Counted from the whole stretch's first letter, positions 24,001 to 45,000 are shown. The stretch is DNA of 59,090 nt, filler included, from Candidatus Omnitrophota bacterium (GCA_023140385.1; 3 parts of 3 records of this genome joined end to end with filler, not necessarily neighbours in it), one strand, 5' to 3'. A program made the numbers.

Positions 24001-27000
24001 CTTGTGATTGTCCATTATTTGACATTTTATAATTTTTATAACGGGAGGACGCAAGGCCCTCCCCTACGTTTTTATTGTATTTACCGAATATAATTTCTCT
24101 ATTTCTCGAACCGATGGTTATAAAATAATACCCATTATTCGCGTAATCATAATTTTTTAATCGGATTTGTTTTCTGGACATTAATTTTTGCATTTTATTT
24201 GTCTATAACGACTGATTTCACCTGCCCCGACGCTTCGGGGTCAGGTGGAATGATTTGTTAGCTTTTTCTGTTTCTTAAAATCTCTCAAACCTCGCACTGA
24301 TGCAACATCATTTAAGACAGTGTCTTGCCACCCTGATTTGACATCTTTCCTTGAATCGAACCTTTGTATGTATGGTTTGATGTCAAGCAAAGGTGTGCCA
24401 TCTAATATATCAAGATCTCTGACATAAAGAATATTATCTTCAATTCTATCCAACCGCACAAGACTCATCCCTAATTTATTGGGACGGTGTGGAGCGCGTG
24501 TAGCAAAAATACCATGTTCACGATCTGACAGATACGGCTTTAAACGTAAACACGTTTTCCGTGAATGATCGAAATAATAGAACAANNNNNNNNNNNNNNN
24601 NNNNNNNNNNNNNNNNNNNNNNNNNNNNNTTAATTAATTAANNNNNNNNNNNNNNNNNNNNNNNNNNNNNNNNNNNNNNNNNNNNATCGACTACCCATTC
24701 GGCTAATTCTGACATTGTAGCTTTCTGAGCACCTTCAAAATAAGGCTGATTTTTGTAAATTCCACACCGCGCCATACATGTTCCACACACTTTGACTGAT
24801 ACGCCCTTGGCAATTAAATCTTTTAATATTTGCGATAAATCTTGATCATATCCTTCTGGTGGATTACACACTTCACGTGCCATATCAACAGAATCATTCA
24901 TCAAGAATATTCTTACTTCTTGTTCCGTCTCCAGCAATTTTCCCGCAAGACGCAATCCATTCCATGTGACATCCGTGTTATCATAAGGTTGACGGTTGAA
25001 GATAATTAGTATTTTCATTATTTCCCCTTTTATTTATAGCTAACGTTGGCATCAGCGGCGTTTTCGCGCGGTGAAAATGTTCGCTGGATGAAATAGTTAT
25101 AGGTTTATTAAATTATCAATATCCTGTTCCCAATTAACCGGGTTATTGGCGATATATTCACGAATCGCGTCCAATGATCTGTCATTTCGTATAATATGGT
25201 CATGATAATTGCGCTGCCATATTTTTTTGCCTGGTGTATTTTGCGATTCGTTTATTTGTTTTGTTGTTTGATATTTGAAATACGCAATAATATTGCCTAT
25301 TGTAGGGGCGGGGTCATCCCGCCCGATTATTTTATTATTATCCGGGCGGGATGACCCCGCCCCTACAATATTTATTATTCCATGGATATGATTGGGCATT
25401 ATTGCATATTCATCAATTAATGCATGGCCATATTTTTCAAATATTTTTTGCCACCATAAATCAATCATATTTCCCACGGCATTTAATATCATTTGATCAT
25501 TTTTAATTGTGCCGAATAATTGTTGCCGATTTTCTGTGCAAATCGTTATGAAATATTGCGCCGGCGTTGAATAATTATGTTGGGGAATTCGATTTGTATT
25601 TCGGCGGGTATATGTTTTTGGCATTTTGTTTGATTTTATTATTTATTTTACCTAACATTTAACATGCAGAATACGTATTTTTTGGGTATTTAATAGCGTG
25701 TACATATAATACATCGCAAATGTACTATCTTCAAGCTTATTGCCTATGGTCATATTATTTGAGTTGTTAGTCTAATTTTTTGCCGGCATCAACGCCCGGT
25801 TTTATGGTGTAGATTTCTTTTAATTTAATCTCTACTACACCTTTGGGAATCGTTTCGGGTTTTTTTGTTTGTATGAATTTTTTGCCTTCTTCGTAAATTT
25901 CCCCTTTTGTATAGTAAGCGGCTTCTCCTTTAATCTTATATGCCTCTCCCGTTTCCGAATTCCAGAAAGAGATGCAAACGTTGCTGTTTTCCAGGAGGTT
26001 TTCTTTGCTCATCTTCATATAATTATCCACCAATATAATTGTTTCATCACCAACAATCTTTTTCCAAAATACAGGAACGACATTTGGATTTCCCTGCTTG
26101 TCTGCTGTGCCAAAAGTAATTAAAGGCTCTTTCTCGAACAAATCCTTCACTTTACCTGAAATTATCATATTAAACTCCCTTTCTATTAAATTTTAAAACT
26201 TTAAACAACGTCCCCTAAACTTAAAAGTAGTCACTGAATAAATCCGCGGTTTTTTCTTTAATAAAGGCAAGTGGTTTCAGCCTGGCGGCTGTTTGAGGAG
26301 AAGCGGTTTCTTTTATGAGGGCGTATTTTGCCAGGCCGAGGCAATTGGACCAAATGGGAGAGTTCAGGGCCTTGCTTATCTGGAAACCGCGCGGTGACCC
26401 CAGCCGGACAGGTAAAACAAAGGTTTTCTGCGCCACTTCTATCATTGAATCCAACAAGGCCGTCCCGCCCGTCAAAACAATTCCGCAGGGAGCGCTCTGA
26501 AGACAGTCCATCTCTTCCAACTTGGCTTCAACTCTGCTCAATATCTTATCCAGGCTGCGCTTAACAGCTTCATTTATTTCATTCTTATTGATAACTTTAA
26601 CGTTTCCGTTGGAGTCCTTCAAGACTACCTCTTCCACCGCCTCTTCACTGCCAACCAGGGCACAGCCATATCTTTTTTTTATCTCCTCCGCGTATGATGC
26701 GGAAACCTTCAGCCTCTTTGAAATGCTTTCGGTAATATCGTCTCCGCCCTTAGGAATCACAGCAAGTTTTTTCAGTTTTTCTTCGTGGAAAAAAGCTATC
26801 TCCGTCAGGCCGGCTCCAATATCTATCAAAACAACTCCTGTTTTCCTCTCCTCCTCTTCCAGGACAGAATAAAATGGCGGCAGGCCGGAGGTTACCATTT
26901 CCTTTATTTGATAACCGGCTTGATTAACGCTTCTTTTTAAATTTTTTATGTAGTTCGAAATTCCTGTTACAACCAACAGGTCAACTTCAATTTTTCTGGC

Positions 27001-42000: not shown

Positions 42001-45000
42001 GACTTGACCATTTTCAATGTGAAGGTATTAAAGTGCAAATTATCCTTCTCATCGTACAATGCCCTTTTCTTTCTAAAAACTTCCATTGGTATCCCTAATT
42101 CAGAGAATTCAAAATGCTTGGATGTGTCAATATAAACGCGAACGCTCTCTCTCATTTCCTTCACCCCCTTTTCTTAAAACTTATCGGGAGGGTCTATCAA
42201 CTCTTCGGCAATGTCTTCAAAAGAGCTCTGTGTATTTTTATAATACTCTTTCCAGACCCCCTCGTCCCATATTTCAAACCTGTTGGAAACACCGACAATT
42301 ATAACCTCTTTTTTAATCTGGGCATACTCCTTGAGATATTTGGGTATGAGAATCCTGCCCTGCTTATCGAGGGATGCTTCACAAGCTCCTGAAAAATAAA
42401 GACGGTTAAATTTTCGTGAATCTCTTTTGGTAAACGGTAGGGATCTAAATTTGTGCTCTTGCGCTTTCCATTCTTCTTCAACAAAAACAAAAAGGCATTT
42501 ATCTAACCCGCGGGTAACATATAACTTATCAATATAATTCTCTTTTGTCAGTAGGCGAAACTTGGCAGGAATAATAAGCCGCCCCTTGCGGTCAATTGTA
42601 TGCTTATACTCCCCATAGAACATTTGATATCCCCCACTTTACTCCACTACATACCACGAAGTATACCCTACACACCCTTTTATGTCAAGGATAAAATATA
42701 CTTTTTTTGTTTAAACACAATAAGTTGTGGAAAATAGAAAAAATGGCCAATATGTAGGGGAAACTAAAAAATGGGAAGCTTTCCTGATTATGATGCAGAG
42801 ATTATGAGGTGTGCTCGTCCACGGCCAATGTAGCCAATCTGTCCGCTTCTTTATTCAAATGCCGCTTTATATGAACAATCTTAACCTCATCTAAGGCATC
42901 TATCAGATGCCTGGCCTGAATATAGAGGGGTTTCAGATTATCGCTCTTGACCTTGTATTGACCGCTTAACTGCCTGGCTACAAGCTCGCTATCCGTTTTT
43001 ATGGTTATCGCCGCGGCTTTAAGAATAAAGGCTTCGGAAAGAGCAAGATTTATGGCGCTATACTCAGCCACATTATTACTTGCCTTACCGATATACTTGG
43101 AAATTCTCTTTATGCATCTTCCGTCATCGTCGTAAACTACTACACCAATACCGGCATGCCCGGGATTTCCCTGGCTGGCGCCGTCTACAAAAAAAATAAT
43201 TTTTTGGGAAGGGAGTGGCTTTATCAATTATTCCTCAATATAGAGTATGCGGGAACAGTTCTCGCAGGCAATAAGGTTTTTACCCAGCTTAACCTCGTGA
43301 ATTGACTGAGGGCGAAGATTCATAAAACAACCCTGACAAGCTGAATCTCTAACGGCAACTATAGCCCGCTGGCCTCTCTTGTTTTGAAGTATCTTTTCAT
43401 ACCTGCTAAGCACGGGTTTTTCTATGGTTGAGGCAATCTTACTTCTTTCGTCTTTTAAGCTTTCGTACTCCTTGTCAAGCTCAGCCATCTTATTGCTTAC
43501 CGCAACCACGCGCTCGTCCAAAAGTTTCTTCCTTTCCTTAAGGTCATTCTTTTTTTCTTCTATGGCGGCTTCCATTTTATCAATCTCATCCAGGATATTA
43601 AGAATCTCTTCCTCGACTAATGAGCTGTCCGCCCTGGTAGAACTTATCTCGTTTTCAAGCGCCCGATACTCATCATTTTTCTTTACCTGATAGAGCTGGC
43701 CCTGCAGCTTCTTTATCTGCGCCTCCTTGCTCTCCAACTCCACCTCTTTATCTTTCCCCTTAACCTGCATGCCCTTTTTCTCTTCTTTAAGCCCGTTTAT
43801 CTGACTTTGGACATCTTCATAAATCAGTTTTTCAGCGTCCACCTCTCGCGGCAATCTTATTTTTTCATCTTCAATTTCAATAATCTTAGAGTCGTAATTC
43901 TGAAGCTTTACCAGTTTTTTGATTTGCTCTTCCATAAATTTAAAACCCTTTTTTATAATCATTTTGGTGGGCGATGCAGGACTCGAACCTGCTACTTCCA
44001 CGATGTGAACGTGGCACTCTAACCAAATGAGCTAATCGCCCTCCTTCGCTAAAGCTACGGCGGGCAGGCCCGCTTTCACTATTAACTATTACGTAAACCC
44101 GCTTTCACTATCAACTATTACGTAAACCCGCCTGCTTCGCTGTTAGCTATGGCGGATAAATAGCTCCAAAGAATCGCTGGCCTGCCAGCCATAGCTCCAA
44201 AGGAGCGACGGCTGGTGGGCCCACCAGGACTTGAACCTGGGACCTACTGATTATGAGTCAGCCGCTCTAACCAACTGAGCTATGGGCCCGATAAGTAACC
44301 TTTCGTTATTATACAAAGATAATACGAAAAAGCAATAAAAAAATTCTTCTCCCCTTATTTGTCTTCGGGAGGATTGCTTATCATCTCGATGAACTTTTCC
44401 GGTAAGTCATAACCTAACTCAACAAGCCTGTCCGCGGATTGACGGGCCAGGCCGCTCTTGCCCTGCCGCATATAGAAAAGAGCCAGGTTGTAATGAGCAA
44501 GGGCGTAATCCGGCTTAAGCTTAATGGCCTCTTTAGAGGCAGCGACCGCCTTTTTAAGTTCGCCGGTCAAAGAATAAGCTATGGCCAGGTTATTATAACT
44601 ATTAACGTAAGTCTTATTTAATTCGATGGACTTCCTGAACGACACTATAGCTTTCTCATATCTGCCCAGTGAGTTATAGGCATTGCCCAGATTATAGTAG
44701 GCGAAGCTGTAGTCCGGTTTTAACTCTATAGCCCTCTTACAAGAAGCTATCGCCTCTTTATATCTGCCTCTTTGAGAATATTCATTACCCAGGGTGCTAT
44801 ATAACCTATGGCTTGAGGGGGCGCATCTCAGTGTTCTTTTATAAAAAGTAAGAGCATCTTTCCAGTAATCACATTGTTTCACAGTTAAACAACCGTAAAA
44901 AAATAACAGTCCGGTTATGACGACAGCCATTAAAACACCGCATCTTCTTTTTCTATAAAGACGCGTTAAAATCCACCCGCTAATTAAAAAGAAGCCCACA

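Follow-up and report, generated by a model that had tools for sequence, protein, structure and literature searches.

Absence of FtsZ and retention of FtsA in the cell division gene set of Omnitrophota

Results

Our analysis supports the loss of ftsZ across Omnitrophota, together with the retention of FtsA, FtsQ, FtsB, an FtsL-like protein, FtsW/FtsI, FtsK, MreB and RodA in the five genomes tested. The window (the whole 59,090-nucleotide stretch analysed, filler included) comes from the assembly of a Candidatus Omnitrophota bacterium, hereafter G000 (1,495,458 bases, 57 contigs, completeness 92.69%, contamination 0.16%). ORFs and Pfam domains of its contig C54 delineate, on the minus strand at 25767-42623, the collinear cluster mraZ-rsmH-(ftsL-like)-ftsI-murE-murF-mraY-murD-ftsW-murG-murC-murB-ddl-ftsQ-ftsA (Table 1), an exact match to the gene order given in the genome-wide survey's note. 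Within it, murC, murE and murF were distinguished from one another by position. The 122-aa FtsL-like ORF displays a single hydrophobic stretch near its N-terminus and, after it, a coiled-coil-like region; it had no Pfam match at 1e-3, its matches lying below threshold (DivIC, E 0.008; FtsL_2, E 0.16). A second SEDS gene of G000 is located near mreB on contig C9.

Table 1. Features of the dcw cluster of G000 and of the region downstream of ftsA (positions in the window).
Feature	Position	Strand	Evidence
DsrE-like ORF, cut by contig start	24686..25018	-	PF02635
IS200-like Y1 transposase ORF, internal GC-rich hairpin	25097..25624	-	Y1_Tnp, E 6.1e-09
PNPOx-like gene in ftsZ slot, not a division gene	25767..26168	-	PF01243 PNPOx_N, E 6.6e-15
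Spacer where ftsZ would start, 52 bp	26169..26220		read from sequence
ftsA, full length	26221..27447	-	FtsA + SHS2_FTSA domains (PF14450 + PF02491)
ftsQ	27449..28258	-	POTRA_1 + FtsQ_DivIB_C
ddl	28278..29243	-	Dala_Dala_lig_C, E 1.8e-54, + N-terminal domain
murB	29209..30138	-	MurB_C + FAD_binding_4
murC	30080..31465	-	Mur_ligase, Mur_ligase_M, Mur_ligase_C; name from position
murG	31446..32567	-	Glyco_transf_28, N-terminal + C-terminal domains
ftsW (SEDS)	32564..33664	-	FTSW_RODA_SPOVE, E 3.5e-114
murD	33667..35073	-	MurD-like_N + Mur_ligase_M + Mur_ligase_C
mraY	35016..36104	-	Glycos_transf_4, E 8.4e-33
murF	36077..37456	-	Mur_ligase, Mur_ligase_M, Mur_ligase_C; name from position
murE	37463..38929	-	Mur_ligase, Mur_ligase_M, Mur_ligase_C; name from position
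ftsI (PBP3-type transpeptidase)	38934..40619	-	Transpeptidase, E 3.2e-82, + PBP_dimer
FtsL-like small bitopic protein, 122 aa	40670..41038	-	position + topology only
rsmH (mraW), 16S rRNA methyltransferase	41043..41927	-	PF01795 Methyltransf_5, E 8.8e-109
mraZ	42174..42623	-	PF02381 MraZ, E 8.6e-40

The PNPOx_N gene that the survey's note had placed in the position of ftsZ does start 52 bp beyond the ftsA stop; no PNPOx-like gene was found at the 3' position of ftsA in any of 20 further loci. With the N spacer extending to 24685, the contig starts 1.5 kb downstream of ftsA. The hairpin in the Y1 transposase ORF is formed by an inverted repeat (25289-25325 / 25343-25379) and has a single copy in the assembly. 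Among the 20 relatives (long contigs), the gene following ftsA was yggS or proC in 11 and an unrelated gene in 9. More precisely, yggS(ylmE)-proC-...-ileS lay directly 3' of ftsA in ten loci and proC in one more, with a gap of 40-430 bp in most of these 11 and yggS-proC-(yggT)-ileS as an often observed order. The yggS-proC-ileS genes are described as following ftsZ in Gram-positive dcw clusters (PMC2923531), and reading the ftsA-yggS junction as a sign of ftsZ loss leans on this Gram-positive gene order; at four loci of the control phylum, the ORF 3' of ftsZ encoded 418-444 aa and, judged by length, was not yggS-sized. No report of the ftsA-yggS junction was found in the literature searched, and the ftsA-yggS-proC-(yggT)-ileS order is put forward here as new. 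Downstream genes varied by family (yggS, MORN-repeat, ZIP, glycine-cleavage, toxin-antitoxin, Abi, PNPOx), and no conserved gene of unknown function occupied the ftsZ slot across the families examined. A 640-aa helical protein encoded 3' of ftsA in family f24 was rejected as an FtsZ substitute: it forms a module with an HD-domain partner and is found elsewhere in other families.

FtsZ was then sought by homology. In the G000 assembly, PF00091 (Tubulin) gave no match even at E<=10 and TIGR00065 (ftsZ) retrieved no FtsZ, its best match (E 0.015) being a Rossmann-fold malate/lactate dehydrogenase; an unfiltered HMM built from five control FtsZ sequences reached E 0.63 at best. A six-frame scan of the assembly again found no GGGTG[ST]G, which we take to be the FtsZ/tubulin signature motif, reproducing the earlier result; the tubulin-motif-like GGGSGTG of one long ORF belongs to a periplasmic-binding-protein-like product. 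No FtsZ remnant was observed when 25 stretches surrounding ftsA or lying 3' of it were searched in six frames. The absence of FtsZ previously noted for the assembly and for 201 genomes of the phylum now extends to 401 Omnitrophota genomes (completeness of at least 90% in 341), in none of which a bona fide FtsZ was found; three single-contig genomes (G143, G149 and G357) and one two-contig genome were negative with both PF00091 and TIGR00065. The same search in the control, a single phylum (that of G401, a Gemmatimonadota MAG), detected FtsZ in 101/101 genomes at 148-185 bits.

The Tubulin cut-off was passed in two of the 401 Omnitrophota genomes, by TubZ-like proteins scoring 46-50 bits. Both combine Tubulin and TubZ-like_C domains, a GGGTGSG motif and a lysine-rich N-terminal tail; the architecture and the motif are shared with TubZ-type homologues acting in plasmid/phage segregation. 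Owing to this architecture and to the location of their genes outside the dcw cluster, they were rejected as FtsZ; G000 encodes no such protein. Because the Tubulin profile detects these distant proteins, its sensitivity reaches well beyond FtsZ. A tubulin-fold protein devoid of any detectable sequence signal would nonetheless escape HMM searches and could still be encoded.

Other division proteins were checked in G000 and four near-closed genomes. FtsK, MreB, DivIC/FtsB and two SEDS proteins were present in all five, while ZapA, SepF, MinD and FtsE were over cut-off in none. The missing ZapA and SepF of the survey's note are borne out, as is its statement that FtsA, peptidoglycan synthesis, MreB and RodA are kept, the second SEDS protein corresponding to RodA.

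FtsA of G000 scored 249.8 bits with TIGR01174 (cut-off 175.85). At E<=1e-5, this profile matched 399 of the 401 Omnitrophota genomes, including 341/341 of the high-quality ones. Compared with the FtsZ-bearing control phylum, Omnitrophota FtsA nevertheless scored lower, the family cut-off being passed in 221/401 genomes vs 101/101, and the protein was strongly divergent in families f24, f13 and f40 (only E 1e-17 to 1e-23). The AF2 model of G000 FtsA (pLDDT 84.7) shows an actin-like fold with an inserted 1C (SHS2) domain, residues 5-376 aligning to E. coli FtsA 7q6d, and a C-terminus modelled as a low-confidence linker followed by a short helix (402-407). The tail (...FIKEKTADLFSDYF) ends in DLFSDYF, and every Omnitrophota FtsA sequence examined terminates in YF or FF, mostly [DEN][DENS]YF. 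Subdomain 1C was the best conserved in the comparison of Omnitrophota FtsAs. G000 FtsA is under purifying selection, as illustrated by a dN/dS of 0.14 against a relative 93% identical. This selection and the kept 1C and C-terminal tail are put forward as new.

Subdomain 2B, the FtsZ-binding part of FtsA, gave a contrasting picture between lineages. In the G000 model it is intact (helices 235-246 and 250-260, hairpin of strands 273-277 and 283-287, helix 288-312). Among the 47 best-scoring Omnitrophota FtsAs, its length is kept (72-80 residues) and its conservation relative to the whole protein is only slightly lower than in the control (0.88 vs 0.94), hence the decay of 2B is lineage-specific rather than general. 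It is also the subdomain whose sequence departs most from that of FtsZ-bearing bacteria, its cross-phylum identity being 0.79 of the whole-protein value. By contrast, about 52 residues are deleted from FtsA of families f3 (G246, G187, G372) and f5 (G012), a loss that, on the G000 model, takes out helix 250-260, hairpin 273-287 and the beginning of helix 288-312. This short form could be matched over its whole length in 33/40 f3 genomes and is still FtsA-folded (pLDDT 87; best PDB match FtsA 7q6f, TM 0.83). A smaller deletion of about 24 residues, exactly the hairpin, occurs in genus g12 of family f8, in G069 and G530, and in G287 of family f40; many f8 genomes carry instead an insertion of 50-60 codons at the hairpin site. 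In E. coli, deletion of S12-S13 of FtsA is reported to abolish the interaction with FtsZ and to cause filamentation (PMC4281207). The hairpin removed in those laboratory mutants is the one missing from natural FtsA of f8 (g12) and f40, and FtsA of f3 and f5 goes further, lacking most of 2B. In Omnitrophota, the 2B-deleted form is the sole FtsA found in the carrier genomes, all without FtsZ. No report of such deletions was found in the literature searched, and they are put forward as new.

Discussion

The absence of FtsZ in Omnitrophota is not new in itself, being already in print for four genomes. The Supplementary Data of Pende et al. (2021, Nat Commun; PMC8178401) include five Omnitrophica genomes, with FtsZ entered as NA in four, FtsA present in four and SepF as NA in all five, and a figure legend of the same paper lists Omnitrophica among the FtsZ-less PVC phyla. 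What has been published on 'Candidatus Omnitrophica' (PMC8178401; Rivas-Marin et al., 2016, PMC5147048) amounts to five genomes, without analysis. The survey's note had worried that genomes labelled Omnitrophota at NCBI could hold an FtsZ; the sole case in the literature, OLB16, the FtsZ-positive member of those five, is now placed in Candidatus Hinthialibacterota. Later papers still count Omnitrophota among the phyla with 'highly conserved' dcw genes, as in PMC12283558. Relative to the canonical dcw cluster and FtsZ-FtsA divisome of E. coli and Verrucomicrobium spinosum, Omnitrophota share the mraZ-to-ftsA order, the full Mur pathway and the same late proteins (FtsQ, FtsL-like, FtsB, FtsW/FtsI, FtsK), but have no ftsZ after ftsA or elsewhere and none of the four partners sought over cut-off. 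Chlamydiota and Planctomycetota, placed with Omnitrophota in the PVC superphylum per NCBI (PMC12673574), are likewise whole phyla without FtsZ that keep peptidoglycan synthesis genes, MreB and FtsK. However, they are recorded as also lacking FtsA and FtsB (PMC8178401; PMC12283558), whereas Omnitrophota keep both, with an intact dcw cluster.

That an FtsZ is present but was missed, either in unassembled or unbinned DNA or as a protein too divergent for the profiles, is highly improbable, and this explanation is close to refuted. It could draw on the incompleteness of G000 (92.7%, 57 contigs) and its nearby contig start, on several MAGs that break a few hundred bases from ftsA (e.g. G089, G023, G370, G077, G215, G213), and on a control tool that overlooks short or very divergent families. 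Against it, the single-contig and two-contig genomes are negative, the 341 genomes of at least 90% completeness yielded just two TubZ-like proteins with a profile sensitive enough to reach them, and the control phylum was positive throughout. Moreover, yggS or proC comes directly after ftsA in 11/20 loci, no remnants were found in the regions searched near ftsA, FtsZ partners are missing as well and some families have lost the FtsZ-binding subdomain. A still unrecognised protein, non-homologous or too divergent, could instead fill the role of FtsZ while tethered to the membrane by FtsA. The full 2B of G000 FtsA and most others, with its unusual sequence, and the insertion at the hairpin site in f8, which would fit a change of partner, speak for this, but we consider it improbable: the ftsZ slot holds no conserved unknown gene, its content differs by family, the sole candidate (in f24) was rejected, and families whose FtsA lacks 2B would have to have solved the problem in some other way.

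Division could also proceed as in Chlamydia, where peptidoglycan synthesis at the division plane is guided by MreB (together with RodZ) and by FtsK; FtsA would then be accessory or repurposed, a possibility that we regard as rather unlikely. The five genomes all encode MreB and FtsK along with a second SEDS protein; chlamydial MreB/RodZ are reported to direct division without FtsZ activity (PMC7029139), FtsK is described as acting early in Chlamydia division (PMC12283558), and in several families FtsA has diverged strongly. Yet Chlamydiota and Planctomycetota are described as having lost FtsA along with FtsZ (PMC8178401; PMC12283558), while Omnitrophota keep it nearly everywhere, with its gene closing the dcw cluster, with purifying selection in G000 and with 1C and the C-terminal tail conserved in the sequences examined.

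We lean, with moderate confidence, towards a loss of ftsZ in an ancestor of Omnitrophota, FtsZ being truly absent here and the rest of the divisome being kept as an FtsA-anchored, FtsZ-independent septal peptidoglycan machine. Among the observations that count against such an FtsA-centred model are the retention of MreB and FtsK, by which the FtsZ-less Chlamydia organises division, the divergence of FtsA in f24, f13 and f40, with 221/401 genomes over the cut-off, and a 2B that is intact in G000 and of full length among the best-scoring FtsAs. The statement of the survey's note that the phylum divides without FtsZ stands as far as gene absence across 401 genomes is concerned; division without FtsZ, its course by septation, the choice of its site and the role of FtsA as scaffold are what we infer from the genomes. 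Under the favoured model, the loss of ftsZ would have left the lipid II pathway complete and spared FtsA, FtsQ, FtsB, the FtsL-like protein, FtsW/FtsI and FtsK. The actin-family FtsA would attach to the membrane via its conserved C-terminal tail, its 1C domain would assemble the septal peptidoglycan synthase without a Z-ring, and peptidoglycan synthesis by FtsW/FtsI would drive constriction. With its modelled intact 2B, FtsA of G000 could still bind some partner, while in the lineages with 2B deleted (f3, one f5, part of f8 and one f40) FtsA appears, from its sequence, to have been freed from FtsZ.

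Results

The dcw cluster lies on contig C54, which occupies positions 24686-52822 of the window (the preceding N spacer ends at 24685), in an assembly of 57 contigs and 1,495,458 bases that is 92.69% complete and 0.16% contaminated. According to the ORFs and Pfam domains of the window, 15 collinear genes run from mraZ to ftsA, and the place directly after ftsA, where ftsZ stands in canonical dcw clusters, is not taken by ftsZ (Table). The genome-wide survey's note had described this order, ending in ftsA with a PNPOx gene 52 bp further on, and its description stands as written. 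The 122-aa ORF of the cluster combines a hydrophobic N-terminus with a stretch resembling a coiled coil; it is considered FtsL-like by position and topology only, because all its family matches were below threshold (DivIC, E 0.008; FtsL_2, E 0.16). At the far end, the coding frame of the Y1 transposase contains a 37-nt GC-rich inverted repeat that occurs once in the assembly, and the contig ends about 400 bp past this ORF and its hairpin.

Table. Location of the dcw cluster, its surroundings and the other genes discussed (C, contig; G, genome searched; L, fetched locus; f, family within Omnitrophota).
Feature	Location	Strand	Remark
CT398-like coiled-coil plus zinc-ribbon protein	window 43228-44001	-	directly upstream of mraZ
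RNase H-like protein	window 42802-43227	-	directly upstream of mraZ
mraZ	window 42174-42623	-	first of the 15-gene run
rsmH, then 122-aa ORF		-	after mraZ
ftsI, murE, murF, mraY, murD, ftsW, murG, murC, murB, ddl		-	in this order, after the 122-aa ORF
ftsQ		-	last but one of the run
ftsA	window 26221-27447	-	last of the run
PNPOx_N gene	window 25767-26168		52 bases beyond the ftsA stop
IS200-like Y1 transposase ORF	window 25097-25624	-	beyond the PNPOx_N gene
Hairpin of the inverted repeat	window 25289-25379		within the transposase frame
DsrE-like ORF			beyond the transposase ORF, truncated by the contig start
PilM-PilN fusion	L092:3191-4846	+	own genome (G000), contig C33
TubZ-like gene	L001:1012-2295	-	G397, contig C10
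TubZ-like gene	L002:1318-2517	+	G358, contig C78
Divergent ftsA of f24	L087:3754-4905	-	after ftsQ
Divergent ftsA of f24	L088:3729-4874	+	after ftsQ
Divergent ftsA of f24	L089:3573-4718	-	after ftsQ
All-helical protein gene	L087:1838-3757	-	f24
All-helical protein gene	L088:4878-6836	+	f24
All-helical protein gene	L089:1624-3552	-	f24
ftsA with insertion in 2B	G540:C12:5183-6538		f8
ftsA with insertion in 2B	G307:C5:31944-33269		f8
Gp49/HTH pair and DUF1016 nuclease	L078:2355-3973		after ftsA
Abi_C protein	L080:1670-2527		after ftsA

FtsZ was sought in this genome by four independent searches. The Tubulin profile PF00091 gave no match in the assembly even at E<=10, and the sole match of the ftsZ equivalog profile TIGR00065 (E 0.015) fell on the N-terminal Rossmann part of a malate/lactate dehydrogenase, not on an FtsZ. 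The tubulin signature motif was present in no long ORF of the assembly in six frames, and an HMM made from five different control FtsZ sequences and run unfiltered on all assembly ORFs of at least 50 aa gave nothing better than E 0.63. The claim that ftsZ is missing from the assembly is borne out by all four. Remnants of ftsZ were likewise absent from six-frame translations of 25 regions around or downstream of ftsA (best match, E 14).

Across a phylum sample of 401 Omnitrophota genomes, 341 of them with a completeness of 90% or more and a contamination of 5% or less, the Tubulin cut-off was passed in two, at 46 and 50 bits. Both proteins (399-427 aa) combine Tubulin and TubZ-like_C domains with a GGGTGSG motif and an N-terminal tail rich in lysine; they are 68% identical and their genes are flanked by ordinary metabolic genes, not dcw genes, with no obvious plasmid or phage. 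A search of the phylum with one of them returned the same two genomes only, all other matches being to the lysine-rich tail alone. Tubulin matches at E 0.002-0.9 in 30 further genomes are at noise level and were not inspected one by one. Three single-contig genomes (G143, G149, G357) and a two-contig genome (G155) were negative with both PF00091 and TIGR00065. With the same search, the control, i.e., the phylum of a Gemmatimonadota MAG, gave FtsZ in 101/101 genomes at 148-185 bits (99/99 without two unpublished genomes). Hence the absence reported by the survey's note for 200 sampled Omnitrophota extends to 401, TubZ-like proteins being found in two, and the loss of FtsZ is almost certainly true.

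FtsA, on the other hand, is retained. The FtsA family profile TIGR01174 matched 399 of the 401 genomes at E<=1e-5, completeness being 67% and 75% in the other two. The family cut-off was passed by 221/401 genomes, with a top score of 328 bits; in the control phylum it was passed by 101/101, at 317-449 bits for undivided genes. The FtsA of the window scored 249.8 bits, and its residues 5-376 align to E. coli FtsA; its dN/dS of 0.14 against a 93%-identical relative indicates that it is under purifying selection. A search for related loci with this protein gave two loci. The second FtsA-like ORF of the genome proved to be a PilM-PilN fusion of 551 aa, lying beside three N-methyl pilins, a T2SSJ-like protein and a secretin in a pilus or type II secretion-like cluster. 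All Omnitrophota FtsA sequences examined have YF or FF at the C-terminus, mostly as part of [DEN][DENS]YF, including the most divergent ones of families f24, f13 and f40, and the best-conserved subdomain is 1C, the inserted SHS2 domain. In f24, the gene after ftsQ encodes a very divergent FtsA that matches nothing in Pfam at 1e-3 (SHS2_FTSA, E 0.005) and is not linked by phmmer to the FtsA of the window; its C-terminus keeps the phylum-typical EYF/DYF tail.

Other division proteins were inventoried in the genome of the window, the three single-contig genomes and the two-contig genome. FtsK, MreB and, over the cut-off, DivIC/FtsB occur in all five, as do two SEDS proteins, one within the dcw cluster and the other near mreB. 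This is in line with the earlier statement that FtsA, peptidoglycan synthesis, MreB and a second SEDS protein besides FtsW, there called RodA, are kept. Among the partners of FtsZ, SepF and FtsE passed the cut-off in 0/5 genomes, other ABC ATPases alone appearing for the latter (200-220 bits vs. a cut-off of 265). The same result for ZapA (0/5) is a weak test, because the control of that search found ZapA in 4/14 named genomes.

The ftsZ slot was compared at 20 ftsA loci out of the 150 best FtsA matches, which are not a random sample because they were picked for long contigs. In 10 of the 20, yggS/ylmE directly follows ftsA and proC comes after it; yggT and a DUF167 gene are also there in some, and nine of these ten continue with a PNP_UDP_1 gene and ileS. 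In one further locus proC stands immediately after ftsA, with PNP_UDP_1 and ileS behind it. Together, the 11 loci span families f7, f9, f14, f21, f33, f38 and f50. The remaining nine loci and the window have unrelated genes after ftsA, including toxin-antitoxin, Abi and transposase genes. The ftsA-yggS junction is consistent with ftsZ having been cleanly removed from an ancestral order ftsA-ftsZ-yggS, since yggS/ylmE and yggT genes stand after ftsZ in Gram-positive genomes, where ylmD, ylmE, sepF, ylmG (yggT), ylmH and divIVA are described in this position (PMC2923531). In four control-phylum loci, the ORF after ftsZ is 418-444 aa long and, by size only, not yggS-sized; the control outgroup therefore gives the ftsZ-yggS order no support. 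Where the yggS block is missing, mobile or defence-type genes often follow ftsA, for instance a Gp49/HTH pair with a DUF1016 nuclease, an Abi_C protein and, here, the transposase. In G089, G023 and G077 (one genus), G370, G215 and G213, the assembly also breaks off no more than a few hundred bases away from ftsA. The dcw operon seems to have a variable end.

In E. coli FtsA, strands S12-S13 in subdomain 2B are indispensable for interacting with FtsZ, and 1C serves self-interaction and the recruitment of FtsQ and FtsN (PMC4281207). In the model of the window's FtsA (pLDDT 84.7), 2B lies between strands 224-231 and 323-326 and comprises helices 235-246 and 250-260, a hairpin (273-277/283-287) and helix 288-312. 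The FtsA profile alignment stops at position 231-279 in 13 of the best 150 Omnitrophota matches; in the control phylum all undivided FtsA matches extend to profile position 347 at least. Seven of the thirteen were aligned together with the divergent FtsA of G287 (f40). About 52 residues are missing from those of G246, G187 and G372 (f3) and G012 (f5), which are 356-370 aa long, and on the model of the window's FtsA the gap takes in helix 250-260, the hairpin and the first part of helix 288-312. About 24 residues, i.e., the hairpin itself, are missing from those of G306, G177 and G025 (f8, genus g12) and G287. By alignment to the window's FtsA, this hairpin corresponds to E. coli residues of about 271-290, R286 included; S12-S13 are numbered as residues 275-290. 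The confident model of the G012 protein (pLDDT 87.1, pTM 0.85) has a single helix between the equivalent strands, and its best match among solved structures is FtsA (7q6f, TM 0.83, E 1e-34), with PilM behind. In 33 of 40 f3 genomes the short form fits over its full length (open frames of 349-389 aa), the remainder being three contig-cut genes and four genomes without a match. Within f8, the hairpin deletion was found in six complete and two contig-cut genes, and 22 of 31 genomes carry an insertion of 50-60 codons exactly at the g12 deletion site, where the FtsA profile alignment ends. In 47 other Omnitrophota FtsAs, 2B stays at 72-80 residues, and its identity relative to the whole protein is 0.88 vs. 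0.94 in 28 control FtsAs, a weak signal from sets that differ in depth (mean pairwise identity 0.29 in one and 0.64 in the other). Because these 47 proteins keep the subdomain at full length, with conservation barely below the control, the loss of 2B is lineage-specific. A kept membrane tail and 1C together with an expendable 2B is the pattern that an FtsA no longer meeting FtsZ would show.

Discussion

Bacterial division is regarded as almost universally organised by FtsZ, and in the FtsZ-less exceptions known to us FtsA has been lost too. We know of no other FtsZ-less division in which FtsA and an intact dcw cluster are kept; that of Omnitrophota is a distinct variant. The survey's interpretation, that FtsZ is missing while FtsA, peptidoglycan synthesis, MreB and RodA are kept, holds, its core having already been published on a small scale. 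Indeed, the bare absence of FtsZ is on record for a handful of genomes, without analysis: for five Omnitrophica, Pende et al. (2021; PMC8178401) enter FtsZ as NA in four, FtsA as present in four and SepF as NA in five, one of their figure legends counting Omnitrophica with the PVC phyla that lack FtsZ, and a further prior record is that of Rivas-Marin et al. (2016; PMC5147048). OLB16 (taxid 1617433) is now placed by NCBI in Candidatus Hinthialibacterota, and therefore the only FtsZ-positive Omnitrophica member is gone. This settles the survey's own worry that NCBI-labelled Omnitrophota might hold an FtsZ, and clears up the conflict between positive and negative statements in the PVC literature, which stems from this one since-reclassified genome. 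In their text, Henriques et al. (2025; PMC12283558) group Omnitrophota with Verrucomicrobiota among phyla with highly conserved dcw genes, and Seymour et al. (2023; PMC10066038) name neither FtsZ nor FtsA in their main text. A full-text literature search returned no paper on the ftsA-yggS junction, on FtsA after FtsZ loss or on 2B deletions. New here are the scale of the absence, the single-contig genomes, the positive control and the resolution of the OLB16 conflict, as well as the ftsA-yggS junction and the natural deletion series in FtsA 2B.

A division mechanism centred on FtsA has, in our judgement, about an even chance of being correct. FtsA, bound to the membrane via its tail, would use 1C to nucleate FtsQ, FtsB, the FtsL-like protein, FtsK and FtsW/FtsI, and constriction would then proceed by septal peptidoglycan synthesis. 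No Min system was found as division-site selector, MinD being over the cut-off in 0/5 genomes, in which ParA/Mrp-like ATPases alone appear. Division could also be led by MreB and FtsK, as in Chlamydia, and both proteins are present throughout the inventory; Chlamydiota and Planctomycetota, however, lack both FtsZ and FtsA, whereas Omnitrophota lack FtsZ and keep FtsA. That FtsZ was simply missed is very unlikely, given the negative single-contig genomes and the FtsZ of every control genome.

Less probably, FtsZ may have been replaced by an unrecognised partner; the 2B subdomain kept in many of these FtsAs speaks for this, and its deletion in others against it. A candidate substitute came from f24, where an all-helical protein of 639-652 aa without Pfam match is encoded directly after the divergent ftsA. 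It is always followed by an HD_5 (HD-GYP-like) protein of about 445 aa, the N-terminal 140 or so residues being homologous between the two. Its profile matched 135/401 genomes at E<=1e-3, copies of full length occur in f14, f15, f24 and f27, and phmmer did not find it in the genome of the window. It was rejected as an FtsZ substitute because the pair is a widespread two-gene module that in f14 stands away from ftsA, on a different contig.

We tentatively suggest, at somewhat less than even confidence, that Omnitrophota possess an actin-only divisome, in which membrane-bound FtsA would serve the whole phylum as cytokinetic scaffold without a tubulin partner, some lineages being already without 2B. 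If true, the phylum would represent a present-day halfway stage, with the universal FtsZ-FtsA system on one side and the condition of Chlamydiota and Planctomycetota on the other. A free-living or host-associated phylum that has no FtsZ, although its dcw cluster is of textbook kind and FtsA and the septal peptidoglycan synthases are retained, sets apart two commonly entangled questions, the role of FtsA alone and the need for a Z-ring. The natural 2B series, from intact through hairpin deleted to 2B deleted, makes them testable with expressible proteins.
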